64,000 nucleotides of DNA from Candidatus Lloydbacteria bacterium RIFCSPHIGHO2_02_FULL_50_18 (lineage in GTDB: Bacteria; Patescibacteriota; Minisyncoccia; Phycocordibacterales; UBA6899): the NCBI GenBank assembly GCA_001821395.1, contig MHLM01000012.1, positions 1 to 64,000 on the forward strand, in the 5' to 3' direction. This document shows, piece after piece, positions 1,512 to 28,823 of the stretch (its first letter is position 1; every line of letters begins with the position of its first letter). Under the pieces are notes generated by a model. It saw only the letters and a program-made list of their open reading frames with translations. It did not search any database and had not been told where the DNA came from. Position numbers and translations under genes: made by a program.

Positions 1512-2501
1512 TTATTCTTGTGACGTAAATGATATAACTCCTTGAACTCTTGCATGCTGCAGAATACGTTTTGGATTTTGCACGTCGAGCGAGATCGTTT
1601 GTGATTCCAAATTTTTACCCGACCTCACGAGTGTCAGGTTCTGTGCGTCAACTTCTGATTGTCGATATTGATTGCCGACATTCCATTTATAGGAAAGTTC
1701 ACCATTGAGTAAGCCGTCAAGAGAAAAGAAATACGGCACAGCGCGTACAGTGAATTCCGTACCTGTCGTTTCCGTAGATTGTTTTAGTGCATGATGAAAG
1801 AGGGTGCCAAGAAGTGGTGCTTGCTCATAGAGTGTGACTTTTGGATCTGAAACAGGAATTGCGACGTATTTTGCCCCCTTCCACTCAGTCCCAGGAAGAC
1901 TTGTTTCGACATCGACGGGTACTGAGGACCCGGCATAACCAACGGGAATAACGATGCTGTTTCGTCCGATAGCTTCTCCCGCCCCCTTTATGCGGTCATA
2001 GGTCCATTTGTAATAGTATTCAGCAGGATTGCTTGTCAGGGTGTTGAATCTCGGGATCGCCGTTACCCGCACCATGCTTTTGTAGCTGGGGAGCGCTTTT
2101 CCTTTGTAGAATGGAGGTGTATATGTTTGAGCTTCCCAGAGAATGTCGACTTCTGCAGGGGCAATAACAAGCTGCTTATTAAGCGTCTGTCCTTCGGCGG
2201 TGAGAATGATTACGTCGATAATGGTCTGCTCTCCAAAGTCTCCCGTCCGAACAGTGATCGATTTTTCCGCCATGCCATTTTTGATTGGCTCTTTATTGAC
2301 ATACCAGGTGATATTTGCGGTACTGAGATTCACTGCGAAGGAATTCATGAGTACGAGGACGCTCTCGTTTGCGCCGGGTGTTTTTGGGGTCGTCGTGAAT
2401 TTCACGAGATCAAATCCTGCTGCAAATAGCGTTCCAGGAAAAGTTGTTAATGAGAAAATTATTCCAATGAGCAATAGTGCTCGTTTTGTACTAAGATACA
2501 T
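1512..2501 (-). CDS. hypothetical secreted protein
   Basis: 329-aa ORF with signal peptide MYLSTKRALLLIGIIFSLTTFPGTLFAAG. Confidence 0.55.
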   Translation of the reverse strand: MYLSTKRALLLIGIIFSLTTFPGTLFAAGFDLVKFTTTPKTPGANESVLVLMNSFAVNLSTANITWYVNKEPIKNGMAEKSITVRTGDFGEQTIIDVIILTAEGQTLNKQLVIAPAEVDILWEAQTYTPPFYKGKALPSYKSMVRVTAIPRFNTLTSNPAEYYYKWTYDRIKGAGEAIGRNSIVIPVGYAGSSVPVDVETSLPGTEWKGAKYVAIPVSDPKVTLYEQAPLLGTLFHHALKQSTETTGTEFTVRAVPYFFSLDGLLNGELSYKWNVGNQYRQSEVDAQNLTLVRSGKNLESQTISLDVQNPKRILQHARVQGVISFTSQE

Positions 2502-2642
2502 GGAATAATTTTACCTTATTTACCTCCAACCCTCAACTGAGTTATCAAGTACCGGTTGCTGTTTTCCTTGTGTTGTAAAGATCAATATTCTCCTCAACAG
2601 AGCTGGGGTGTATGTCGCGCGGATCAAGTCATTCAATCTGCA

Positions 2643-3089
2643 CTAAGTACTCGGAATAACGAGTCTCCCGGCACCAGAAATAACTTTTTTGGCAATGCCC
2701 ATTGCTCGTCCGACAAAGAAAGATGCAAAAAAGGCGATACTTGCGTCAGGGAGAAGATTAATGATGGGGATCATCCCCATAAGCGCACAAATACTGGTGA
2801 TCATAAATTTTGTCATGATCCCTCGACGTGAATAGAGGTGATAGATCATTGCGATGATTCCAACAGTAAGCGTCATAATCCCACCGAGAATCATGCAAGC
2901 GATAGAGATGGGAATACCGATGACCGTTGCCGCGGTCATTGCCTCAATGCCAGAAAGGAAGAGGTCGATAATGTCCTTAAGTATCATGATCCCTGCGACA
3001 AGCCAAAAAAAGAGCATATTTGTAGCTGCCTTCGCAGCAGATTCGCCGGAATTATCAGGTTTTGCTGTTTTTAGTGAAGATAGTGCCAT
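2643..3089 (-). CDS. small polytopic membrane protein; possible T4SS pilin / VirB2-VirB3-like subunit
   Basis: 148 aa with 3-4 hydrophobic helices. It sits immediately downstream of the VirB4-like ATPase in the same orientation. Confidence 0.45.
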   Translation of the reverse strand: MALSSLKTAKPDNSGESAAKAATNMLFFWLVAGIMILKDIIDLFLSGIEAMTAATVIGIPISIACMILGGIMTLTVGIIAMIYHLYSRRGIMTKFMITSICALMGMIPIINLLPDASIAFFASFFVGRAMGIAKKVISGAGRLVIPST

Positions 3090-3095
3090 TCTGTA

Positions 3096-4895
3096 TTATC
3101 CTTTAGCCTCCGCAAGCTCCTTTTTTGCCTTCGCTATTGCCAGCATTTGTGCCGGATCGGAGCTGACGATCTGGTCTTCGGTGTAAGAAGCGTAGACCTT
3201 GATAGCGACGTGCTTTAATCCTGCGAAGAAAAGTCCTTCCCCTACCCCTGACTCGAGTAAGAGATACTTTTCTTCATCAGTTAAATGGAACGTCTGCTGT
3301 ACAAGATCGATCGTCGTCGGTGATTGCTTGAGGAGTATTTGGATCGATGAGTTGGTGAGGATCGGAAGCCCATACGGAGAACGAAGGAAATCGTTGACGT
3401 CCTGGGTGATGGTCGCAATACCGAGGTAGTATTTACGACCGCGTTTCGCAAGACCAAAAAGGAATGATGCCGTATCCTCGGATTTCATCATCCACCACGC
3501 TTCATCAACAACGAGGAGGCGTTTGCGTATCTCCTTTCGTATCGCTGTCCAAATATGGTGCGTGACGATATAGACGGCGACTGGCTTCAACTCGTCCTCC
3601 ATGTTGCGGACAGAGAACACGGTGAAGCGCTTTGTGATATCCACATTCGTTGGCTGGTTCAAGAATCCCGACCAGGTTCCTCTCGTGTATTTCTCAAGGC
3701 GCTGAAGGAGCGACTCCGTTCCGTTCATTCCGGAGAGGACGATCTCGAAGTCCGACAGTAGTGGCGGCTCGATATCAGCAAAATTAATATCAGGCGTGAT
3801 ATCCTTGAGTGCGTATGTTTCTGAAATTGCACGGTCAATGATCGAGTCTTCCTCCGGAGTGAGTCCTCCGAGCATAATGCGGAACAGTCCGACGAGGAAG
3901 ATGATATTCGAGCGCAGCACGTCCGCACCGGACTCATCTTCGCGTGGGGCAGGAAGGTCGAACGGATTGATGTGATGTTCTGATGTCAGTGAGATATTAA
4001 AGTAGCGCCCTCCCGTCGCTTCCGCAAGAAATCCGTACTCTTGCTCAGGGTCGATAACGATCACATCCGCATCGAACATGAGTGTTCGGATGATCTCGAG
4101 TTTTGTTGAATAGGATTTTCCCGAACCTGAGACGGCAAATGTGACCGAATTGTAGTTCGGCATTGAGAATCGATCAAAAAGTACAAGCGAAGCATTGTGC
4201 CTGTTGATCCCCCAAAGAATTCCCTTGTCCGAGGTAAGGTCGAAGGAAACGAACGGGAATATCGACGAAAGTGGCGCAGAGTTCATCTTGTAGTGGACCT
4301 CAAGCTCGTCAGTCATGAGCGGGAGAACGCTGCGGTATGCTTGCTCTTGCTGGAAGATCGCCGGTTTTAAATATACGAGTTTCGCATCAAGGATCGACTT
4401 GAGCTCACTCTCTACTTTGTCGAGCTCGTTTCGATCGTTGGCATAGATCGTGATATAGACACCAACATCAAAAAGGCGCTCTTCCGCTTGTTGGAGCTTG
4501 TCACGCAGTCCCTCGAGGTCTTGGTATGCGATATCAAGCACCGGGTCACGGACAAACCCCTTGCGCTCACGTTCGTTGATCTGGCTCTGTACCTCAGCGA
4601 CCTTTTTCTGGAACGAACGGAGCGCGAGTTCTGTTTGCACGGGATGGATCATGATTGCGACATCGAACACTTTGTCGAGATTGATGATAGGAGTGAACCA
4701 ATCCTGCGACAAGAACCGAGGATAGGAGATCACGAACAACGTGCGTGCGATCTTGTCGCCGATAAAGATATCTTTTGGAGTGATGTCTACGGCGGCGGGA
4801 GCAAGAATATCCTTCATGTCGAGGTTTGTTGACTCGAATATATCAGAAGGAAGCACCCCGGTATTTAAATTTTCAAATCCTTTTTTTTCTGCCAT
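3096..4895 (-). CDS. virB4: VirB4/TrbE/CagE-family type IV secretion ATPase (ATPase domain portion)
   Basis: Walker A FAVSGSGKSYST and Walker B LLVVDEAWWMM, both typical of the VirB4 family. The N-terminal region TLFVISYPRFLSQDWF resembles the VirB4 central conserved block. Confidence 0.8.
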   Translation of the reverse strand: MAEKKGFENLNTGVLPSDIFESTNLDMKDILAPAAVDITPKDIFIGDKIARTLFVISYPRFLSQDWFTPIINLDKVFDVAIMIHPVQTELALRSFQKKVAEVQSQINERERKGFVRDPVLDIAYQDLEGLRDKLQQAEERLFDVGVYITIYANDRNELDKVESELKSILDAKLVYLKPAIFQQEQAYRSVLPLMTDELEVHYKMNSAPLSSIFPFVSFDLTSDKGILWGINRHNASLVLFDRFSMPNYNSVTFAVSGSGKSYSTKLEIIRTLMFDADVIVIDPEQEYGFLAEATGGRYFNISLTSEHHINPFDLPAPREDESGADVLRSNIIFLVGLFRIMLGGLTPEEDSIIDRAISETYALKDITPDINFADIEPPLLSDFEIVLSGMNGTESLLQRLEKYTRGTWSGFLNQPTNVDITKRFTVFSVRNMEDELKPVAVYIVTHHIWTAIRKEIRKRLLVVDEAWWMMKSEDTASFLFGLAKRGRKYYLGIATITQDVNDFLRSPYGLPILTNSSIQILLKQSPTTIDLVQQTFHLTDEEKYLLLESGVGEGLFFAGLKHVAIKVYASYTEDQIVSSDPAQMLAIAKAKKELAEAKG

Positions 4896-4900
4896 AGCGA

Positions 4901-5548
4901 TTACATGACTGAAGACTCAAGTTCTCCGGGATTAAATTTCTTGTAAAAAAGTTCGGTTATTTCTTCGGTTCCAAGTCGGATCGTGCGCAAGTCGCATCGG
5001 GAAAGACCTTGTTCGACGATTGATGCACGCTGCTCAAGCTGGACGCGTGCTTCCTCAAAGCTGTGTGTTTCTGCGGCGGTCAGTTTTTTGCTCGAGGCCT
5101 TCTTTCCGAAAATACCGGACAGGAGACCTCCTCCCCCGCTCCCCTTAGCAAGGCTCACTCCTCCCGAATATGGGATGATGATAAAAAAGTTCTTTGACAT
5201 GATATTCGTGCGGCTCGTGAAGTCTCTGACGAAGCTGATATATTCATGCACTTGAATCTTCATGGCATCAACGAGTTGTGCCCGTTCTCGTTCCTCAAGC
5301 ATCTTGAGGTATGGCCGGATGTCGAGACGCTTCGATTGGATGGAGATCTGAATAGGAAATTCGAGTGAGTTCAGGACATTTTGGAATTGCATCAGTATCG
5401 CGGCTTGCTCATCCCCAGATTTTAGTCCAAAGTTAAGGGATGAGGTCATCAGCATCATGCGGAGGTCGCCATTGTTGAGTACGATGACACCATTCCTGAT
5501 ATCACGAATGGGAACGAAATCTTGTGACGGTTTTCCTAATGTTGGCAT
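4901..5548 (-). CDS. VirB4 N-terminal-domain-like protein (apparent split VirB4); start assumed at MPTLGKP
   Basis: The segment IVLNNGDLRMMLMTSSLNFGLKSGDEQAAILMQFQNVLNSL matches the VirB4/TrbE N-terminal region pattern. It ends 5 nt before the ATPase ORF start. The two ORFs together are about 814 aa, the normal VirB4 length. Confidence 0.45.
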   Translation of the reverse strand: MPTLGKPSQDFVPIRDIRNGVIVLNNGDLRMMLMTSSLNFGLKSGDEQAAILMQFQNVLNSLEFPIQISIQSKRLDIRPYLKMLEERERAQLVDAMKIQVHEYISFVRDFTSRTNIMSKNFFIIIPYSGGVSLAKGSGGGGLLSGIFGKKASSKKLTAAETHSFEEARVQLEQRASIVEQGLSRCDLRTIRLGTEEITELFYKKFNPGELESSVM

Positions 5549-5562
5549 GCTGCAATTATAAC

Positions 5563-6009
5563 TTAAATAACGGCTGATTCCGAGCCTCGTTTCTCTATGA
5601 CCTTCGGTTTCGTGTCGATATCCATGGACCACGTAAGGTCACTCAGCTTATTTCCTGTTCCGGCGATCGGAAGTGACCCCACTTTGATTGTCGTTTGAAA
5701 ATTATTCAGATTGAGTTCGGTCGGCATGAGTGTTTTTTCTGATCTTTTCCACACGTAGCGACGCACATTTTTCATATAGTTAAATGCGGACTCGATCATG
5801 TTCGCAAACGGTTTTTTATTTGGGCGGTAGAATCCGAGTGCTCCCCCAAGACCAACGCACCCGAGAGCGAGGAACCAGCCGATAAATGGTATACGAGAGC
5901 ATATGTAGCCGAGACCGACACTGCCCGCGATGTAGAGAAACTGCTTGATCGTGAGCGGACCAATGACCTTATCTTCAACATCAAGAAATTGTGGTACCTG
6001 GAACTGCAT
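5563..6009 (-). CDS. PrgI/VirB3-like small T4SS membrane protein
   Basis: N-terminus MQFQVPQFLDVEDKVIGPLTIKQFLYIAGSVGLGYI followed by two TM helices, as in PrgI/TcpE-like proteins of monoderm conjugation systems. Start assumed at the internal Met. Confidence 0.5.
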   Translation of the reverse strand: MQFQVPQFLDVEDKVIGPLTIKQFLYIAGSVGLGYICSRIPFIGWFLALGCVGLGGALGFYRPNKKPFANMIESAFNYMKNVRRYVWKRSEKTLMPTELNLNNFQTTIKVGSLPIAGTGNKLSDLTWSMDIDTKPKVIEKRGSESAVI

Positions 6010-6105
6010 TATGGTTAGTTTACCTTTTTTTGTTTTAGGTGAACAGCGATCCGCCACTCACTGGGGAAGCACTAGCATTTCTTCCGCAAAGAGGCCTAGG
6101 AGTTT

Positions 6106-6750
6106 TTACCCTTCGGTCGTCTCCCTATAAGCATCTGGCTGTGTAGTCAGACTCGGTGCTTTTGTCTCGACAGGCTGAAAAGGAACAGTTGGCGTCGGTG
6201 GAGGGGGAACGACGAGCATGGGGTCCATGACCCGCTCCCTTGTCGGTGTCGGTATGGGGCTACTCATACGGAATGCGCCGCCAAGTTTTTGTTCGAATAT
6301 ACTCCCCACCGGCCTTGTCGGTGTCGGAGGTGTGGGGGTGACGATGATCGGTCGTTCTACGGTTGTTGTCGCCTGTGGTGCGCTCGCTGTCCCAGATCCG
6401 GAAATAGTTGACGGCGTGGTTTCAGTATATAGAGCGGTAAGAGAACCTTTGACACTGTTAAAGATATTTAAGTTGAGGTCCTGAGCAATAAGTGCTGCTT
6501 GTTCGCGAGATATCTTTAGCTCGTCTGTGAGCGCTATCACAAACTGCTGTGGCTGGGTGACGCCCATGAGGAGTAGACTGGATTGATGAGAGAGTGATTT
6601 TCGCTGCGCGGTACTGAGTACGAATTTTGTTGCGATCGCATCGTAGTACTCTGAAGTTTGCGGAGAAAAAATGACATCCTGAAGATCATCCGGCAGAGAG
6701 CGGTATATCGATAAAAGATCTTCTTTGGTATAAGTGTATGCCATGATCAC
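6106..6750 (-). CDS. hypothetical protein with Pro/Thr-rich C-terminal region
   Basis: 214 aa with PTPPTPTRP and PPPPTPTVP low-complexity linker-like stretches. It lies between the VirB6-like and PrgI-like genes. Confidence 0.45.
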   Translation of the reverse strand: MIMAYTYTKEDLLSIYRSLPDDLQDVIFSPQTSEYYDAIATKFVLSTAQRKSLSHQSSLLLMGVTQPQQFVIALTDELKISREQAALIAQDLNLNIFNSVKGSLTALYTETTPSTISGSGTASAPQATTTVERPIIVTPTPPTPTRPVGSIFEQKLGGAFRMSSPIPTPTRERVMDPMLVVPPPPTPTVPFQPVETKAPSLTTQPDAYRETTEG

Positions 6751-6753
6751 AGA

Positions 6754-9132
6754 TTAGCTCGCAAGCTTGTTTAGGTTGTCCTGGATCGATTTTTCACTTG
6801 CCTCTGCTGCATCGTGTGCTTTCTGCGCATCACCGATCTTTGTAGATATCCCCGTTGCTTTTGCCGCAGCAAGTCTCGCCTCTGTCTCTGCGCTTCTCAG
6901 TTTTGCTGCGCCGAGATCGATCTTCAGAGCGTCTCCACTCTTTGTTTTTGCAGCTCGAGCGATGTTGCGCTGGTAATTTTTCATATCACTTTCTTGGATG
7001 GTTCCCATTTCGAAAAGTGAAGATTTTCCTTCCGGAGAATTCATGTAGTTCACCACCTCTTCTCTCCCTCCGATTGCCACACTCTTAGTGAGCTTTTCTG
7101 TAACGCCTGCCTTGTAGCCGTCCTCGCTGACCGCCTTCCTCTGTATTGCATGAAGGTCTGCCTTCGTGAGATTACGTGCAAACGCGACACTTTCATAGTG
7201 GTCTTCTGCCAGCTTAGCTCGATCAATAGAAGTGAGGCCTTGCATTGCTTTCTTCATTTCTTCAGATACCTCCTTTGTTATTCGAATGACCTCATCATCA
7301 GCAGATTTGTTTATGGCGAGCTTCTCCTCATCTGTTTTGGCGTCTTTAATGGCAGCGGTGCGTTTCGTCTCGATATCGTTGATCCTTTCTTTTTCTGCTT
7401 TTGCGTGTTCCGCAATCTCCTCCTTGCTTTTTGCTAGGGCTATCCCCTTATTGAGCTCCTTTCGTGTCGCATCGTTACGCTTTGCGTCTGCGATGATCTC
7501 GCCAGGTTTGTTCGTAATATCTACCCCTCTTTGTTTTAAGTATGCTTGTTGCGCCGTCGGGTCATTTGGGAACCGTGCTTTTGCTGTGGCGATAAGCGCT
7601 TTCTCGTTTTCTGTGCCCACATAACCACCCACACCCTTATAAGAGAGAGAGCCCTCAGCGCCACCCGTTGTTGCATAACTCCTCTTGCTCCCAGCGCCTG
7701 TTTGAATCCCTACTGCTCCCAATGCGGCTCCGACACCAAGTCCTTTCATTGGCGCATTGCGTATGTCGTAGGTCCCCTTACTTGCTTTCTCTGCGGCGGC
7801 AAGTTTGAGGTTTGCGGAGCGGGCTGCAAACTTATCTCCTATCTTTGCGTCTTTCATACCACCCTTTGCAATAAGCTTATTTTGTTCAGCGACCCATTTT
7901 TCATTTTGGAGCTTACTCCTGCCCGCCCTACCCGCCGTTTGTCTCCCTACTGCTCCTGCGGCACCGAAACCGGCTGCGGCTCCATAGCCAAGGCCTCTCT
8001 TCGCCCACCTACTTCCACTGTCTCCCGCGCCCGCACTCACCGCATTTGCAACCGTGAGTGATGCGAGCAGCAGTATGATCATCAGTACGTAGTTGTAGAT
8101 GATTGGCAGACTACCAGGGTCTCCTGCGAGTGCGGCACCCCATTTTAATCCCTTGGCGCCGCCAAGAGTGTTGAGGTCAACACCGTTAATGATGATGATC
8201 ACGAGATAGAGCATCGCAAGGAATGCGGGCGCTACAAAGGCGTTGCCGATTAGTTTACTCAGCCATTTTTGGCTGAATCCGCCTCCCACAGGTAGGGCAA
8301 AAGAAAGAAAGGCAAATGGAGAAACGATCATCAGAAATATAAGGGTCACCGTGCGAATGATCATCATGATCGCTCCCGCGAGAAATACATATCCGGCAAC
8401 CAGCATAACGAGCGCACCGCCAATATAAATAAGGATACGATTTATGGGTTGTATGCCCGGAATCGTGTTTCCATCCTTATCTTTAAAGTCAGCGATCGAC
8501 TGGAGTTTTAACGCACCCAGGAGATGCTGTGCAGCAGAAGAATCTCCCGGCACTTTTCCCATCTCCATTTTTGACCAAAATCCCATAGCGAGCACGTTGC
8601 CGGCATCAATAACTACTTTTGTGGCAAAGAGGCTGAAATTGATCAGTATTGCGGCGAGGATCAGATTTGCAACCCAGCGTTTAGTGCTTGAGCCACCCAT
8701 GCCAAGAATCGTCTTGATGGCAATATAGAGTAGTGCAAAAATAAAGAACATATTTGAAAAGTCGCGCACCGTCGTCCAACCGACATTGATCACCTGGAGA
8801 CTCGAATACATATTGCTGTCGATAGTGGACTGAATTGCCATATCAAGCAAGAGGCCGCATCCCTCAAGAAACAAGCCGGCCGCCCAAAATATTGCCTGCG
8901 CGAGCATTTCCAGTAATGCGAGCGCAGCGTTCCCCGCCGCATCAAGTGCAGCTCCGCCAAAAAGCTTTGCTGCTACATACGACCCCCCCGCCCAGAGCGC
9001 CCAGGCAATTGGAAGAAATCCTCTAGAAGTACTATTGAAGCGATCTATCTTTTGGTTCTCTGCTGTGTCTGCCGAGTTCCGAAAAAGCGGTTTGAATTTT
9101 TTGTGTGCTATCGAGTAGTAATAAAGTTTCAT
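6754..9132 (-). CDS. VirB6/TrbL-like polytopic membrane protein with long hydrophilic Ala/Lys-rich C-terminal domain
   Basis: 792 aa. The N-terminal ~380 aa hold 6 or more TM helices separated by Gly-rich loops (TrbL/VirB6 architecture). The C-terminal half is charged and coiled-coil-like (KAEKERINDIETKRTAAIKDAK...). Confidence 0.55.
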   Translation of the reverse strand: MKLYYYSIAHKKFKPLFRNSADTAENQKIDRFNSTSRGFLPIAWALWAGGSYVAAKLFGGAALDAAGNAALALLEMLAQAIFWAAGLFLEGCGLLLDMAIQSTIDSNMYSSLQVINVGWTTVRDFSNMFFIFALLYIAIKTILGMGGSSTKRWVANLILAAILINFSLFATKVVIDAGNVLAMGFWSKMEMGKVPGDSSAAQHLLGALKLQSIADFKDKDGNTIPGIQPINRILIYIGGALVMLVAGYVFLAGAIMMIIRTVTLIFLMIVSPFAFLSFALPVGGGFSQKWLSKLIGNAFVAPAFLAMLYLVIIIINGVDLNTLGGAKGLKWGAALAGDPGSLPIIYNYVLMIILLLASLTVANAVSAGAGDSGSRWAKRGLGYGAAAGFGAAGAVGRQTAGRAGRSKLQNEKWVAEQNKLIAKGGMKDAKIGDKFAARSANLKLAAAEKASKGTYDIRNAPMKGLGVGAALGAVGIQTGAGSKRSYATTGGAEGSLSYKGVGGYVGTENEKALIATAKARFPNDPTAQQAYLKQRGVDITNKPGEIIADAKRNDATRKELNKGIALAKSKEEIAEHAKAEKERINDIETKRTAAIKDAKTDEEKLAINKSADDEVIRITKEVSEEMKKAMQGLTSIDRAKLAEDHYESVAFARNLTKADLHAIQRKAVSEDGYKAGVTEKLTKSVAIGGREEVVNYMNSPEGKSSLFEMGTIQESDMKNYQRNIARAAKTKSGDALKIDLGAAKLRSAETEARLAAAKATGISTKIGDAQKAHDAAEASEKSIQDNLNKLAS

Positions 9133-14207: not shown

Positions 14208-15050
14208 CTATTTTTCGTGAGGGTGTTTTGTATGACTTGAGATTTTCTTAGTAAGCCACATCCATGTTCCGATCGGCAGATCCTCTCCCCGTGCTTTTTT
14301 ATCAATACTGAGCTCGTCAAAGTACTCAATTATCTTGTCTTTATGTATACCTAATCCCTCTGAAAGATTTCCGACGAGCATTTTTCGTTTCGCGCGAAAA
14401 CCGGCCTTGATGAGGGTGAAGAATTCTTTTTCAGTAAAATCTTCGATCCTTTGTTTGCTGATATTGGTGATCATGAGGATCGCAGAATCGACCTTTGGCA
14501 CCGGATCAAAGGATTCCTTTGGGACCGTTGCAACATATACCGGGTCACCAAATATCTTAATTGAGAGTGAAAGGATCGTCTCTTTTTTGTTGCGCGAGAC
14601 GATCTGCTCCGCGACCTCTTTTTGTACGAGGAAGGTGAGCTGTGAAGGAGCACGGTGTTCCTCGAGAAAATAGCGGAAAAGCATTCCGGTAATGTAATAA
14701 GGAATGTTGGCGACGACTTTATATGTCGGCACATTACCGAGTAGTTCATCAAATAATTCCCGCGTAATATTTTTTTCCAGAATGTCGCCTTCTAAAAGTA
14801 TTAGGTGACCATCGCGAAGCGCATCAGCAAATCGGTCAGTAAGAATGGGGATGCAGCGCGTATCCTTTTCAATCGCGATCACATGAGCCCCAGCGTTCAA
14901 GAGGGCATTCGTGAGCGCCCCTTCCCCGGGGCCGACTTCAATGACGATGTCTCCGGGGAATATACCGGATGCATCAATGATCTTTTCAATGGTCGTTTCC
15001 GAGCGGAGAAAATTCTGTCCTAATGATTTTTTTGCTTGAATATTTTTCAT
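14208..15050 (-). CDS. rsmA: 16S rRNA (adenine1518/1519-N6)-dimethyltransferase
   Basis: KKSLGQNFL and VIEVGPGEGALT are the KsgA/RsmA signatures. Start taken at the internal Met MKNIQAKK. Confidence 0.85.
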   Translation of the reverse strand: MKNIQAKKSLGQNFLRSETTIEKIIDASGIFPGDIVIEVGPGEGALTNALLNAGAHVIAIEKDTRCIPILTDRFADALRDGHLILLEGDILEKNITRELFDELLGNVPTYKVVANIPYYITGMLFRYFLEEHRAPSQLTFLVQKEVAEQIVSRNKKETILSLSIKIFGDPVYVATVPKESFDPVPKVDSAILMITNISKQRIEDFTEKEFFTLIKAGFRAKRKMLVGNLSEGLGIHKDKIIEYFDELSIDKKARGEDLPIGTWMWLTKKISSHTKHPHEK

Positions 15051-15170: not shown

Positions 15171-17195
15171 TTATATATAGACAACGCTGTCATTATCCTC
15201 ATCCCAGCCGAGGAGACTGACGCGTTTGCCGTTTGACTTGAAGGTATTCTCCGGAAAGGCTTCACCTTCTCGGGATTCATTCACCAGCAGTGCTTGGTCA
15301 AGGTCATCAAGAAATTCTGAAGGAATATTCACCGTACGGCTGCCGAAGATGGTGCGGAACGATGCGTAGGACAGAAAGACCTTCTTTGCAGCTCGGGTGA
15401 GTGCGACATAGAAAAGCCGCCGTTCTTCTTCTTGTTCGGATTGATCCTTGCTCTCATCGCGTGAGCGACGAGACGGGAAAAGGTCTTGTTCCATTCCGGT
15501 AATGAACACGTATGGGAATTCAAGACCCTTTGATGCGTGAATGGTCATGAGGCGTACTGCGTCAACCTCGCCCTTCATTGTGTCTTGATCGGACTCAAGT
15601 GCAACATCGGCAAGAAACTGCTCGATCCCTTCCTCTCCTTCAAAGACGTCATAGCGCGTGGCGACCGAGACGAGTTCGCGCACGTTCGCAAGTCGTTCCG
15701 TATCTTCTTCATCCCCGTCCGACAGTATACGCTCGATACCCGTCTCTTTGATGATGAAGGCGATGAGCACCGACGGCTTCATTGTCTCCTCGGCATGCTT
15801 GATCTTCTCAAGTAGTGCGTAGAATAGCGCGACCTTTGCACGCATCGTCGCGGGCAGTTTATCCGCTTCGCCTGCGAGGATCTTCATGAGCGTGACCTTC
15901 CCCACTCCCCGCGCGGGAACATTGATGACGCGCTCAAGATCAAACGGAGAGTTCGGATTTCGTGCGGCCTTCAGGTATGAAAGAACATCCTTCACTTCCT
16001 TGCGCTCATAGAAGCGGACCCCCAGCACTTGATACGGGATGCCTGCAAAGAGGAGTGCTTCCTCAAGCACGCGAGATTGGAAGTTCGTGCGGTAGAGAAT
16101 CGCCACTTCATTGGGACGCGCACCGCTTGATAAGAGGGCGGCAATGCGCATCGCAACGAAGCGCGCCTCGTCCGTTTCATCATATCCCGCAAAAAGTGAA
16201 AGCTTTTCTCCAGCAACATTTTCGGTGAATAACTTTTTTTGCTTGCGCATCGTGTTCTTGGCTATCACCGTGTTGGCTGCCGAGAGAATGTTCTGTGTTG
16301 AACGATAGTTCTGTTCGAGCAGGATCACCCGTGCACCGGGATAGTCCTCCTCGAAATTGAGAATATTCGCTATTGATGCACCGCGCCAGCTATAAATATT
16401 CTGGTCACTATCACCGACGACGCAGATATTCTTCGTTTTTCCTGCAAGCAGTCGAACGAGCTGATATTGGACTTGGTTTGTGTCTTGATATTCGTCGACG
16501 TGGATGTATTGCCATTGCGTCTGATAGTACCGGAGTATCTCCTCATGGGATTGGAGCAGTTTTACGGTCTTTTCCAGAAGATCATCAAAATCAAGCACGT
16601 TTGCTGACCGCAATGCCTCTTCGTAGAGCACAAAGACCCGCTTCAGTGTCGTTGCGAGGTAGCGGTTATTCGTCGTCTGCTCGATCGTATCTGGAGTTCC
16701 GAGATTTCCCTTATGGCGGGAAATGAGACCTTGAACCTTGCGCGGTTCGAACTGTTTTGGGTCAACTCCGGCTTTCACCATGGATTGTTTGATGAGTTTG
16801 AGTGATTCGTCTTGGGCAAGAATGCTCGCACTTTTCGGTATGCCAATCGCCTCCCCTTTTTCACGCAAAATGGAGATGCCGAGGCCGTGGAAGGTCCCGA
16901 TAAAGGGAAGATCTCTCCGGCGCCCGAACCCACCCACCATTCCTTCTGCCCCCAGCAGCGCAAAAACGCGTTCCCGCATTTCCTTGGCCGCTTTGTTGGT
17001 GAAAGTGATAGCGAGGATGGCACCACCCGGGACCCCTCCCTCCATAATATGGCCGATGCGATGGGTCAACGTTTTAGTTTTTCCCGCTCCTGCTCCGGCA
17101 ACAATGAGCACGGGGCCTTCCGTGGCAAGGACCGCCTTTTTCTGCGCTGGGTTCAGGTTTGCAAGGAGGTCTTTTGTCTTTTTTTCGGAATACAT
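15171..17195 (-). CDS. pcrA: ATP-dependent DNA helicase PcrA/UvrD family
   Basis: Walker A AGAGAGKTKTLTHRI, helicase motif YIHVDEYQDTNQVQY, and the UvrD-type motif III/IV spacing. 674 aa. Confidence 0.9.
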   Translation of the reverse strand: MYSEKKTKDLLANLNPAQKKAVLATEGPVLIVAGAGAGKTKTLTHRIGHIMEGGVPGGAILAITFTNKAAKEMRERVFALLGAEGMVGGFGRRRDLPFIGTFHGLGISILREKGEAIGIPKSASILAQDESLKLIKQSMVKAGVDPKQFEPRKVQGLISRHKGNLGTPDTIEQTTNNRYLATTLKRVFVLYEEALRSANVLDFDDLLEKTVKLLQSHEEILRYYQTQWQYIHVDEYQDTNQVQYQLVRLLAGKTKNICVVGDSDQNIYSWRGASIANILNFEEDYPGARVILLEQNYRSTQNILSAANTVIAKNTMRKQKKLFTENVAGEKLSLFAGYDETDEARFVAMRIAALLSSGARPNEVAILYRTNFQSRVLEEALLFAGIPYQVLGVRFYERKEVKDVLSYLKAARNPNSPFDLERVINVPARGVGKVTLMKILAGEADKLPATMRAKVALFYALLEKIKHAEETMKPSVLIAFIIKETGIERILSDGDEEDTERLANVRELVSVATRYDVFEGEEGIEQFLADVALESDQDTMKGEVDAVRLMTIHASKGLEFPYVFITGMEQDLFPSRRSRDESKDQSEQEEERRLFYVALTRAAKKVFLSYASFRTIFGSRTVNIPSEFLDDLDQALLVNESREGEAFPENTFKSNGKRVSLLGWDEDNDSVVYI

Positions 17196-17574: not shown

Positions 17575-18621
17575 TTGCGAAGTCTGGTCAGTCTGTTTCG
17601 GATGAGCACGCTTTCATTGAAAAAGCTGAGTTTTTCTCTATTTCTCCTCCTCATCATTCCCGGAGCTGTCGCATCTGCCAGCTTCTTTTCTTTTTTCGGA
17701 GACATCTTCAGCAAGGTGAGCACTCAGGAGAAGATCATCAATTCACAGAATGTTGCCCTGCTCGCAGCCGCGATAGGCCCCGGGGAATATATCAATCCAG
17801 ACTCTGCTGAGATCAGTACTGTCGGTGAAAGTGCGATATTGCCTGATGTTGGTCCGGACGGGGGGCTTTCGGATGTTGACGGAATGGAAGGCGGCCATGG
17901 ACAGATCAGTATTTACGTTGTCCACGAGGGTGATTCTCTTTCTGCGATCGCGCAGATGTTTGATGTTTCGGTGAACACCATTCTTTGGGCAAATAGCCTG
18001 CCTCGGGGCACGAAGCTTTCTGTCGGACAGACGCTGGTGATCCTTCCTGTGTCAGGGGTAAGGCATATCGTAAAACGAGGTGATACGGTATCGTCGATCG
18101 CGAAGAAGTATGCGGGGGATCCCGATGAGATCCGTTTATATAATGGCATTGATGGAGACACACTCGCGATCGACTCCGAGATCATCATTCCTGATGGAGA
18201 GGTTGCTGCGGTCGTGGTCAAGACAAAGCCCGCTTCCTCGAAATTAGGCGGCGGAAATGTCCCACTTTATAATGGGTACTATCAGGCGCCGTTCGGAGGT
18301 TATCGAAAGACACAGCGGCTTCATGGTTACAACGGCGTTGATCTCGTCTCCTCGCTCGGGATAGGGGCGCCGGTGATGGCCGCCGCAAGAGGAACAGTCA
18401 TTATTGCTCGACGGGGCGGCTATAATGGGGGGTACGGGAGTTACGTCGTCATTCAGCATGGCAATGGAACACAGACGCTCTACGGGCATCTAAAGTCGGT
18501 GACTGTGTCATCAGGAGAGATCGTCGTTCAGGGGCAGACGATCGGGACGATGGGAAATTCGGGGCGATCGACGGGACCACATTTGCACTTCGAGATCCGC
18601 GGCGCACGAAATCCTTTCTAA
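17575..18621 (+). CDS. secreted LysM-domain M23 (lysostaphin-like) peptidoglycan endopeptidase
   Basis: Signal peptide, two LysM motifs (VHEGDSLSAIAQMF, VKRGDTVSSIAKKY), and M23 motifs GVDLVSSLGIGAPVMAAARGTV and HLHFEI. Confidence 0.9.
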   Translation: MRSLVSLFRMSTLSLKKLSFSLFLLLIIPGAVASASFFSFFGDIFSKVSTQEKIINSQNVALLAAAIGPGEYINPDSAEISTVGESAILPDVGPDGGLSDVDGMEGGHGQISIYVVHEGDSLSAIAQMFDVSVNTILWANSLPRGTKLSVGQTLVILPVSGVRHIVKRGDTVSSIAKKYAGDPDEIRLYNGIDGDTLAIDSEIIIPDGEVAAVVVKTKPASSKLGGGNVPLYNGYYQAPFGGYRKTQRLHGYNGVDLVSSLGIGAPVMAAARGTVIIARRGGYNGGYGSYVVIQHGNGTQTLYGHLKSVTVSSGEIVVQGQTIGTMGNSGRSTGPHLHFEIRGARNPF

Positions 18622-22674: not shown

Positions 22675-24870
22675 CTATATCCCCGGTTTTGGCGTGGGGA
22701 CGAATCTTTTTGGTGTCGGACCGGTGTCATCGCCATGAGATTCACTCATCATCTTTGCATCTCGCTCGTTTGGCTTGATGAAATCCTTGTCGGCGCGCTT
22801 GATGGAGAGGTTGATGCGACCCTTATCATCGACTTCTTTGACGACGACGGGGACTTCCATTCCCTCCTTAACATAATCAGCGACGCGCTCGATACGGAAT
22901 GGGGCAATTTCAGAGACGTGAACGAGTCCTTCCGCGCTGTGCCCTATCTTTACAAAGGCACCAAAGTCCATGAGTCGCGTGACGACACCCTTGAACATTT
23001 CTCCTGCAACGTACTCGTGGGTCATTTCCGCAATAATATCGCGTGCCTTCTCCGCGGAGCCGCTCTTTCCGGTGCAGAACACTGTGCCATCATCTTCAAT
23101 ATCGATCTCCGCTCCTGTTTGCTCGCGGATCTCTTTTACTGTTTTTCCTCCGGAGCCGATTACCATCCCGATCTGGTCGGGCTTGATCTTGATGACCACG
23201 ATCTTCGGAGCAAAGGGAGAAATGTCCGCACGTGGTGCTGCAATTGCGGCCTTCATTGTCTCAAGAATAGTGAGGCGAGCGGCTTTCGCTTTTGCAAACG
23301 CTTCCGCGAGTATCGGTAGTGGAATTCCATTAACCTTTACATCCATTTGAATTGCAGTAACACCGTTCTTTGTGCCGGCAACCTTGAAATCCATATCGCC
23401 GTGATGATCCTCAGGTCCCTGGATATCAGTGAGTACCTTATACTTTGTCGGTGTTTCCATCATCAGTCCCGATGCGATGCCTGCGACCGGCTCCGTAATG
23501 GGCACGCCTGCATCCATGAGGGCCAACGTGGAACCGCAGACCGAGGCCATTGATGTCGAACCATTCGAGGCCATTGATTCAGAAACGATGCGGATGGTGT
23601 ACGGAAAGGCCTCCTTCGCAGGAAGTACCGGCAGGAGTGCCTTTTCGGCAAGCGCCCCGTGCCCGATCGCTCGGCGGTTCATTCCCCCCATGCGTCCTGT
23701 CTCACCCGAAGAAAATGGCGGAAAGTTGTAATGATGCAGGTAGCGTTTCTTCCCCTGCACCTCCATTCCTTCAATGATGAGTGAATCCTGCGGTCCGCCT
23801 AATGTGAGTACGGAAAGCACGTGTGTTCCTCCGCGATAAAAGACTCCCGATCCGTGAAGTACGGGCGAGATCCCTCCTGCCTCTGCAAGAAGCGGGCGTA
23901 CCTCATCGAATGAGCGGCCATCAGGGCGCTTGTTCTCGTTGATTGCCTTTTTGTGCAGGAGATCATTTACCTCGTCATCAAAATATTGTGCTGCAAGTTT
24001 GTCATTCATCCCCTCGACGGCTTTGACGCATGTCATCCACTCATCCATGAGTGCATATTCGCGTGTACGGCCGGCCTCTCCCCAGATTGTTGATTCAAAT
24101 TTTGGAGCGATCTTCTCTGTAAACAATGCCTTGATGTCTTCACCAACCTCGTCGAGCTCTATGATGCGTTTCGTTTTTCCTAGTTTTGCAATAATCGCTT
24201 CCTGAAACTTTTGTAGTTTCTCGATCTCAGCACTTGCATAGGTGAGTCCTTCCATGACGACATCTTCTGAGATCTGCTCTCCCCCCATCTCGATCATGTT
24301 GACGTTGCCGTCCTTGCCGCAGACGATAAGCTCGCAGTCACCTTCAATGATCTCTACATTTTCTTCGACACGAAATGACGGCATCGTGACCCATTTTCCG
24401 TTCTGTCTAGAAACGCGTACCGCAGAGACCGGCCCGCCGAACGGAATCTCGGAAACCGCAAGCGCGATCGACGCACCGTTCACCGCGAGTACGTCCGGCT
24501 CGTCTTTATCGATCGAAAGAACGGTGATGACGACTTGTACGTCGTATCGTATGCGTCCATCGAAAAGTGGGCGTATTGCACGGTCGATGATGCGACCGGA
24601 CAAAACCGCGACATCCGAGGGACGTCCCTCGCGGCGCATGTATTGGCTACCAAGGATCTTGCCTGCGGCATAAAAGCGCTCCTCATAATCCACCGTAAGC
24701 GGGAAAAAATCTCCTCCCTCACGCTTCTTATTCGACATCACCGCGGTCGCAAGGATAGTCGTATTCCCATATCGGATAAAGACCGAACCGTGGGCTTGGT
24801 TCGCAAGGTCATTGAACTCCGCGATAAGCTTCTTTCCCCCGATCTCGATCTCGAATGATTCTTTTTTCAT
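22675..24870 (-). CDS. pnp: polyribonucleotide nucleotidyltransferase (PNPase)
   Basis: 731 aa with two RNase PH domains, KH and S1 C-terminal domains (GEMFKGVVTRLMDFGAFVKIG) and N-terminus MKKESFEIEIGGKKL. Confidence 0.95.
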   Translation of the reverse strand: MKKESFEIEIGGKKLIAEFNDLANQAHGSVFIRYGNTTILATAVMSNKKREGGDFFPLTVDYEERFYAAGKILGSQYMRREGRPSDVAVLSGRIIDRAIRPLFDGRIRYDVQVVITVLSIDKDEPDVLAVNGASIALAVSEIPFGGPVSAVRVSRQNGKWVTMPSFRVEENVEIIEGDCELIVCGKDGNVNMIEMGGEQISEDVVMEGLTYASAEIEKLQKFQEAIIAKLGKTKRIIELDEVGEDIKALFTEKIAPKFESTIWGEAGRTREYALMDEWMTCVKAVEGMNDKLAAQYFDDEVNDLLHKKAINENKRPDGRSFDEVRPLLAEAGGISPVLHGSGVFYRGGTHVLSVLTLGGPQDSLIIEGMEVQGKKRYLHHYNFPPFSSGETGRMGGMNRRAIGHGALAEKALLPVLPAKEAFPYTIRIVSESMASNGSTSMASVCGSTLALMDAGVPITEPVAGIASGLMMETPTKYKVLTDIQGPEDHHGDMDFKVAGTKNGVTAIQMDVKVNGIPLPILAEAFAKAKAARLTILETMKAAIAAPRADISPFAPKIVVIKIKPDQIGMVIGSGGKTVKEIREQTGAEIDIEDDGTVFCTGKSGSAEKARDIIAEMTHEYVAGEMFKGVVTRLMDFGAFVKIGHSAEGLVHVSEIAPFRIERVADYVKEGMEVPVVVKEVDDKGRINLSIKRADKDFIKPNERDAKMMSESHGDDTGPTPKRFVPTPKPGI

Positions 24871-28055: not shown

Positions 28056-28823
28056 ATGTATTACGTTTCATGGAATGTGAATGGACTTCGTGCAGCAGCA
28101 AAGAAGGGATTTTTGGATTGGCTGTATGAAACGCAGCCCGATGTACTCGGGTTGCAGGAAACAAAAGTAGAAGCGGAGCAGTTGCCTGAAGAAGTGCGCA
28201 GTCCAAAGGGGTATTTTGCTTACTTCACGCATTCAAAAGGGCGGAAGGGTTACAGTGGTGTCGCCTTGTACTCAAGGACAAAGCCCGACAAGGTAGAATA
28301 CGGTATAGGAATTAAGCGCTTTGACGACGAAGGACGGATCATTATCGGACATTATGGAGATCTTGTCCTTTTGAATGTCTATTTCCCGAACGGAGGTGGG
28401 GGGCCAGAGCGCCTCAAGTATAAACTCGATTTTTATGATGCTTTCTTGCTGCATATAGAAAAGCTGCGGAAACAAGGGAAAAAGGTCATGGTCTGCGGGG
28501 ACGTCAATACGGCACATGAGGAGATTGACCTGGCGCGACCGAAAGAGAATGAGAACAACACGGGATTCCTTCCGGAAGAACGCGCGTGGATCGACGAGCT
28601 TGTGTATCACGGCTATGTTGATACGTTTCGTTATTTTCATCCGAACAAAGAAGGTGCGTATAGTTTTTGGGATATGAAGACACATGCTCGAGAGCGCAAT
28701 GTTGGATGGAGGATCGATTATTTTTTTGTTGTACCTGATCTTGTCAGCAAACTTAAGTCGGCAGGTATCTCGGACCAGACGCCTGGCTCCGATCACTGTC
28801 CAGTATGGGTGGTTCTTAAATAA
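28056..28823 (+). CDS. xth: exodeoxyribonuclease III (AP endonuclease, ExoIII/APE1 family)
   Basis: MYYVSWNVNGLRA, LQETK, the GDVNTAHEEIDL region, and the C-terminal SDHCPVWVVLK. Confidence 0.85.
   Translation: MYYVSWNVNGLRAAAKKGFLDWLYETQPDVLGLQETKVEAEQLPEEVRSPKGYFAYFTHSKGRKGYSGVALYSRTKPDKVEYGIGIKRFDDEGRIIIGHYGDLVLLNVYFPNGGGGPERLKYKLDFYDAFLLHIEKLRKQGKKVMVCGDVNTAHEEIDLARPKENENNTGFLPEERAWIDELVYHGYVDTFRYFHPNKEGAYSFWDMKTHARERNVGWRIDYFFVVPDLVSKLKSAGISDQTPGSDHCPVWVVLK

Follow-up and report, generated by a model that had tools for sequence, protein, structure and literature searches.

In the 64,000-nucleotide (nt) stretch of Candidatus Lloydbacteria bacterium RIFCSPHIGHO2_02_FULL_50_18 analyzed here (assembly GCA_001821395.1, contig MHLM01000012.1, positions 1 to 64,000; the window), VirB4, the ATPase of a type IV secretion system (T4SS), appears on the minus strand as two adjacent open reading frames (ORFs). 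The question that this locus raises is whether a single virB4 gene has been broken there, is being switched, or is made as two proteins. An earlier reading of the letters alone (the original prediction) had noted that a 215-amino-acid (aa) ORF (ORF1) stops with TAA 5 nt before the ATG of a 599-aa ORF (ORF2), which lies in a different frame and begins ATGGCAGAAAAAAAAGG, with a run of eight adenines (A8). These observations all hold on the minus strand; counted from the first base of the ORF1 stop, ORF2 starts 8 nt further on, which puts it in another frame. The choice had been left among a genuine two-gene VirB4 with translational coupling, a frameshift pseudogene, and a slippage-prone, phase-variable junction. 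We conclude, with a probability of roughly 90%, that ORF1 and ORF2 are two intact, separate genes of a chromosomal T4SS of Candidatus Lloydbacteria (Parcubacteria/Patescibacteria), ORF1 encoding a TrsD-like protein and ORF2 the rest of VirB4 (Table 1).

ORF1 is a VirB4 N-terminal module

ORF1 carries the VirB4 N-terminal signature that had been claimed for it: its residues 9 to 122 align to positions 2 to 117 of the 752-position CD1110-type VirB4 model (NCBIfam; E = 3e-4), and its residues 8 to 125 align to positions 104 to 233 of the VirB4_plasma model (NCBIfam; E = 1e-6). Because these single-sequence matches are weak, the whole family was tested. Among 78 diverse relatives of ORF1, the VirB4_plasma model matched all 78, the TrsD/TraD model 74 (counted at E ≤ 0.01; best E = 8.5e-13), the CD1110 model 64, and TIGR00929 32, and every match was N-terminal. 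The AlphaFold 2 model of ORF1 (predicted local distance difference test score, 88) found its best PDB matches in TrwK/VirB4 and superposes on the N-terminal region of TrwK.

The ORF1 protein has an identical counterpart in a Candidatus Lloydbacteria metagenome-assembled genome (MAG). Homologues of ORF1 number 3728, the top 120 of which are all between 184 and 234 aa long. When 1.84 billion cluster representatives were searched exhaustively, all but one of the best 150 were short stand-alone proteins, the exception being a 797-aa protein (P0218) whose N terminus matches the TrsD model. Alignment of the concatenated 814 aa of ORF1 and ORF2 to a full-length VirB4, a check that the original prediction had proposed, gave a single collinear high-scoring segment pair with P0218 (48% identity over 815 columns), in which the ORF1/ORF2 junction falls in a nonconserved linker. 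The P0218 gene follows a PrgI gene on a patescibacterial contig and lies near rnpA, yidC, dnaA, and dnaN; it is either a rare natural secondary fusion or an artefact in the assembly of a MAG. With the profile matches, the AlphaFold model, and the collinearity with the fused relative in agreement, ORF1 is the N-terminal module of VirB4.

Its more specific relationship to TrsD was weighed separately. ORF1 is a stand-alone protein within the range of about 200 to 230 aa that is typical of TrsD/TraD, and its gene lies, as theirs do, between a VirB3-like gene and a VirB4 ATPase gene. Comparison of the ORF1 family profile with TrsD of plasmid pSK41 by hhalign gave a moderate match (probability, 77%; E = 2e-5) that is collinear over the full length. 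Three results weigh against the assignment: on the NCBIfam TrsD model (NF041427) ORF1 by itself scores 13.3 bits (E = 0.055), which fails the cutoff of 200; a direct BLASTP comparison of ORF1 with pSK41 TrsD detected no similarity; and a local Pfam-A scan of ORF1 returned no family even at an E value of 10. The link to TrsD is therefore one of profile, family-level, and positional evidence. The local Pfam-A scan also disagrees with the precomputed annotation, in which PF26593 (TraC-like) is assigned to the identical protein (P0001) and to all of the top 120 homologues. A PDB sequence search with ORF1 gave chance matches alone (staphylocoagulase; E = 0.6). For the homology between TrsD and VirB4 we cite PMC12102498; TrsD is absent from the main text of Guglielmini 2014 (PMC4027160).

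ORF2 holds the ATPase and the second half of the N-terminal domain

ORF2 is recognized as VirB4 by its own match to the CD1110-type model (NCBIfam conju_CD1110, NF045971), on which it scores 361.9 bits (E = 6.8e-108), above the curated cutoff of 325 bits, with residues 20 to 564 aligned to positions 180 to 733. Walker A (GSGKS) and Walker B (LLVVDE) motifs are present, the Pfam matches are to P-loop_TraG (E = 6e-25), AAA_10, and DUF87, and residues 223 to 576 match the VirB4 C-terminal domain in PDB 4AG5 (E = 2.5e-34). Upstream of this ATPase domain, residues ~20 to 222 constitute the second half of the VirB4 N-terminal domain, preceded by a variable tail of about 13 residues. The break thus lies inside the N-terminal domain and not at the border between the N-terminal and ATPase domains.

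The original prediction, in which VirB4 is split at an A8 tract into an N-terminal and an ATPase ORF, was accordingly right about the split and wrong about its place in two respects, since the tract is downstream of the ORF1 stop and the domain border is not where the chain is divided. Nor is there a single polypeptide of ~750 to 830 aa with both N-terminal and ATPase domains, as the stop codon and the 5-nt gap part the first ~120 profile positions from the rest.

The two genes are separate throughout the relatives

We gathered 74 loci from distinct GTDB species (Lloydbacteria, Adlerbacteria, Nomurabacteria, Kaiserbacteria, Magasanikbacteria, and other Parcubacteria), in 70 of which downstream DNA with the ATPase gene was found; these 70 are the basis of the statistics on the split. 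In every one of them the two genes are separate, the ORF1 homologue ending in a stop codon and the ATPase gene having an ATG of its own, with median lengths of 218 aa for the ORF1 homologue and 604 aa for the ORF2 homologue. The gap between them has a median of 7.5 nt and ranges from −4 to 1410 nt (≤16 nt in 55/70), and each of the three relative frames occurs about as often as the others (26/23/21). In two loci (L063 and L065), one or two four-helix-bundle genes and a 142-aa PrgI-like gene stand between the TrsD-like and VirB4 genes, so the gene order in the T4SS core is not fixed. Judging by their translations, the four-helix-bundle genes may resemble those of 23S rRNA intervening-sequence proteins. 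In a further locus (L072), a TrsD-like gene (3962-4627; 37% identity) has no ATPase/VirB4 gene within 4 kb downstream, which fits the remark in PMC12102498 that some TrsD homologues do not adjoin virB4.

In comparisons with 12 of the closest species, synonymous sites have reached saturation (proportion of synonymous differences, 0.67 to 0.88), and nonsynonymous divergence (dN) is 0.08 to 0.24 for ORF1 and 0.03 to 0.10 for ORF2. By this sequence comparison, both ORFs are under strong purifying selection.

These results bear directly on the proposal that a once-continuous virB4 was broken by an insertion or deletion near the A8 tract and that the locus is decaying. Such a history would account for two ORFs in different frames only 5 nt apart and for their joint collinearity with the 797-aa fused relative. 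It is contradicted by the consistent split, in all three frames and over so wide a range of gaps, by the genes that intervene between the halves in L063 and L065, by the full length of both ORFs, and by a dN far below the saturated synonymous divergence in each of them; moreover, the A8 tract, being downstream of the ORF1 stop, cannot be the lesion, and the chain is broken at the same point in the functional conjugative plasmid pSK41. The split in all 70 species and the low dN rule out a recent frameshift, and we regard a decaying pseudogene as having next to no probability. The original prediction had itself suggested comparing fused and split forms at orthologous loci and had named a consistent split with conserved spacing as the outcome that would speak for a functional arrangement and against a lesion; the consistent split was found, with variable spacing, and on these terms it refutes both the pseudogene and the slippage-prone junction.

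Frame changes of another kind were seen at three loci. In L079 (ENA ANAN16-1 scaffold_23659), from the same population as the window, an 8-nt insertion in the 3' part of ORF2 shortens the call to 540 aa, and two distant MAGs (L069 and L073) have a frameshift inside the ATPase gene. All three probably reflect errors of assembly and have no bearing on the ORF1/ORF2 junction.

The A8 tract is incidental

The run of eight A's at the third to fifth codons of ORF2 could be the site of a phase-variable switch, in which slipped-strand mispairing turns expression of the ATPase on and off or alternately joins and separates the two ORFs, and 9 of the 70 species do have at least seven A's in a row (seven or eight) within the first 30 nt of ORF2. 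Fusion by this route is impossible: the tract is downstream of the ORF1 stop and a TGA stands in the ORF2 frame 24 nt 5' of the ORF2 ATG, so a change in tract length cannot join the ORFs. Both A8 and the 5-nt gap are constant in nine of nine independent consensus assemblies of the same population from nine samples, gathered through exact-protein look-ups. A metagenome scan with a junction pattern allowing A6 to A12 returned 0 matches. The tract is not overrepresented in the window either (6 A8 matches versus 7.5 ± 3.7 expected from dinucleotide-preserving shuffles); most orthologues have runs of two to six A's, and the differences in run length among close relatives are frame-keeping substitutions. 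The T4SS is, furthermore, essential in the one patescibacterium tested (PMC10633639 and PMC12102498). A junction switched by slippage, the third of the readings originally offered, is thus very improbable. We assign an equally slight chance to the narrower version in which the A7 to A8 run in the first ATPase codons, in the Lloydbacteria population and the nine species alike, turns the T4SS ATPase on and off by slipped-strand mispairing without any ORF fusion; a small residual probability is kept because consensus assemblies could hide read-level variation. The A8 tract is, in our reading, a set of incidental Glu-Lys-Lys codons in the variable N-terminal tail of ORF2.

The two frames could alternatively be joined during translation, with programmed frameshifting or stop codon readthrough at the junction giving a fused VirB4 besides, or instead of, two proteins. 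In favor of this are the very small gap and the 7 open codons that precede the ATG in the ORF2 frame and overlap the end of ORF1. No slippery X XXY YYZ heptamer occurs, however, in the 13 nt to which any shift would be confined (GAG TCT TCA GTC ATG TAA), and among the orthologues neither the frame relation nor the length and sequence of the spacer is conserved, other genes even standing between the two in some species. An Rfam scan of the window found just four tRNAs and nothing at the ORF1/ORF2 junction. Recoding is to us slightly less credible than a slippage switch, if not as remote as a decaying pseudogene.

Expression and proposed assembly of the two proteins

If ORF1 and ORF2 are two genes, as we conclude, the question of how the second is translated arises. 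No Shine-Dalgarno (SD) motif lies in the 5-nt spacer ahead of ORF2, and SD-like motifs occur in just 4 of the 45 long ORFs of the window. A TATAAT-like hexamer ending 4 to 12 nt before the ATG is found in 16 of these 45 (1.3 expected), with a peak at 6 nt, and ORF1 is among them; further examples lie upstream of the genes at 28056(+), 31339(−), 37580(+), 43006(−), 22536(−), and 58528(+). This distribution suggests that leaderless mRNAs may be widespread in this Lloydbacteria genome. A promoter and terminator consensus scan of positions 2400 to 6900 gave nothing above chance.

The scarcity of SD motifs and the TATAAT hexamers near ATGs together suggest a leaderless transcript from ORF1 and translation of ORF2 via termination-reinitiation. 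The TATAAT ending 6 nt ahead of the ORF1 ATG would drive transcription of the operon into a leaderless mRNA, and ORF2, which has no SD motif and starts 5 nt past the ORF1 stop, would be translated by ribosomes that have terminated on ORF1, the spacer being the probable site of termination-reinitiation. Of the two-gene VirB4 with translational coupling that had originally been proposed, the two genes are thus borne out by the consistent split and by the purifying selection, and the coupling stands as a prediction from the layout of the junction.

The ORF1 stop codon is itself embedded in a −10-like hexamer (4896-4906, minus strand), which reads TGTAAT in the window and is a perfect TATAAT in L003, L007, and L008. 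TAA is the stop codon in 54/70 loci, and T is the commonest next base (31/70). The hexamer might act as an internal promoter from which a leaderless transcript of the ATPase gene begins, or it might be no more than a strong TAAT stop context.

At the protein level, ORF1 corresponds to the first subdomain of the VirB4 N-terminal domain, made as a polypeptide of its own, and we propose that the ORF1 and ORF2 proteins would reassemble noncovalently into a VirB4-like unit. The N-terminal domain of the VirB4 of R388 (TrwK) is the membrane-proximal, VirB3-contacting part of that protein (structures 7O41 and 8RTD). By analogy, the TrsD-like piece may be the part of the unit that contacts the membrane and the VirB3-like protein.

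Genomic context

T4SS membrane component genes neighbor ORF2. Directly upstream of ORF1 is a gene for a PrgI-like (VirB3-like) small membrane protein, which gene callers predict to be 148 aa long in identical contigs. The 792-aa product of a gene further upstream weakly matches the CD3337/EF1877 mobilome membrane family and is a candidate for the VirB6-like channel subunit of the same cluster. The cluster is flanked by chromosomal housekeeping genes, namely, those for KsgA/RsmA, a UvrD helicase, a LysM + M23 peptidase, and PNPase, and no relaxase was found among the window genes scanned. The LysM-M23 peptidase could act as the cell wall hydrolase of the T4SS (the role of VirB1).

Table 1. Features of the split virB4 locus, its surroundings, and the loci used for comparison
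Feature	Coordinates	Strand	Remarks
ORF1	4901..5548	−	ATG at 5548, TAA at 4903-4901; 215 aa; TrsD-like stand-alone protein, first subdomain of the VirB4 N-terminal domain
ORF2	3096..4895	−	ATG at 4895; 599 aa; VirB4-type ATPase, remaining N-terminal domain plus P-loop ATPase domain
Intergenic spacer	4896..4900	−	5 nt, tcgct, between ORF1 TAA and ORF2 ATG
A8 tract	4881..4888	−	ORF2 codons 3 to 5 (GAA AAA AAA, Glu-Lys-Lys)
TATAAT hexamer, perfect	5555..5560	−	Ends 6 nt before ORF1 ATG; candidate −10 box, leaderless transcript
PrgI-like (VirB3-like) small membrane protein gene	5563..6009	−	Directly upstream of ORF1; Pfam PrgI, E = 1.3e-5
792-aa protein gene	6754..9132	−	Weak match to CD3337/EF1877 mobilome membrane family (NCBIfam NF046089, E = 9e-4)
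KsgA/RsmA gene	14208-15050	−	
Flanking genes	15171-17195, 17602-18621, 22675-24870	−, +, −	UvrD helicase, LysM + M23 peptidase, PNPase
TrsD-like/VirB4 interval with intervening genes, L063	4182-5124		
TrsD-like/VirB4 interval with intervening genes, L065	4634-6043		
P0218, single-chain VirB4 with TrsD-like N terminus	L076, 544-2937		GCA_964615945.1, CAZTUR010000004.1; patescibacterial contig

Comparison with known systems

Measured against the single-chain VirB4 proteins (R388 TrwK, PDB 7O41/8RTD; the CD1110-type proteins of integrative and conjugative elements of Firmicutes; and P0218), ORF1 and ORF2 together cover the whole length collinearly, P-loop ATPase domain included. The differences are that the window encodes two polypeptides, divided within a variable linker region rich in glycine and lysine, and that these total 814 aa, compared with 752 to 797 aa for the single chains.

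VirB3-VirB4 fusions, which occur in some conjugative systems, demonstrate the evolutionary plasticity of the domain boundaries near the VirB4 N terminus, but they represent fusion, the opposite of the fission seen here, and none was found in Patescibacteria (PMC12102498).

The division itself has a counterpart in the conjugative Staphylococcus plasmids pSK41/pGO1 (MPF_FATA, pGO1 subclass), where the order trsC-trsD-trsE corresponds to that of the PrgI/VirB3-like, TrsD-like, and VirB4 genes of the window; in pSK41, trsC is annotated as VirB3-like, trsD as "TrsD/TraD family," and trsE (672 aa) as VirB4. In both systems the gene of a small protein sits immediately before the VirB4 ATPase gene and immediately after the VirB3-like gene (227 aa and a 14-nt gap for trsD; 215 aa and 5 nt here), and the break is in the same position, TrsE beginning at CD1110 position 183 and ORF2 at position 180, with 23% identity between ORF2 and TrsE over 576 columns. 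The two systems differ in that the similarity between ORF1 and TrsD is very remote (no BLASTP match; 13 bits on NF041427) and in that pSK41, a conjugative plasmid, carries genes for a relaxase and a coupling protein, whereas the cluster in the window is chromosomal and has no relaxase among the genes scanned. TraD-TraE of pIP501 is related through the family name "TrsD/TraD."

A full-text literature search for "split VirB4" gave no match. Under the name TrsD, the arrangement is ordinary: the literature has already described it, and existing family models capture it. Among the T4SS components of Patescibacteria, TrsD homologues are the most abundant (2272, of which 1664 adjoin virB4; Quinonero-Coronel et al. 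2025, PMC12102498), and the homologue of Southlakia epibionticum ML1 is essential (Wang et al. 2023, PMC10633639, cited in PMC12102498). The practical consequence is chiefly one for annotation: a short gene followed by a late-starting VirB4 gene in Patescibacteria is no reason to call a pseudogene, a frameshift, or a phase-variable locus. What the detached TrsD-like module does is a question sharpened by its TrwK-matching model, by the break shared with pSK41, and by the rare natural fusion.

The locus belongs to the chromosomal T4SS of Patescibacteria (PMC12102498; SEML1_0006-0019 of S. epibionticum ML1, PMC10633639), a phylum-wide system in which a TrsD homologue adjoins virB4, a PrgI-like VirB3 is near, and the cluster is chromosomal, near housekeeping and origin-proximal genes, including KsgA, which is named in PMC12102498 and is in the window too. 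Nothing substantive separates the two, and the window adds one more member, from Lloydbacteria, to that system; the essentiality, established by transposon sequencing, refers to a Saccharimonadia species and not to the lineage of the window. The locus is that of a typical chromosomal, relaxase-poor T4SS of the kind that is essential in the one genetically tractable patescibacterium.

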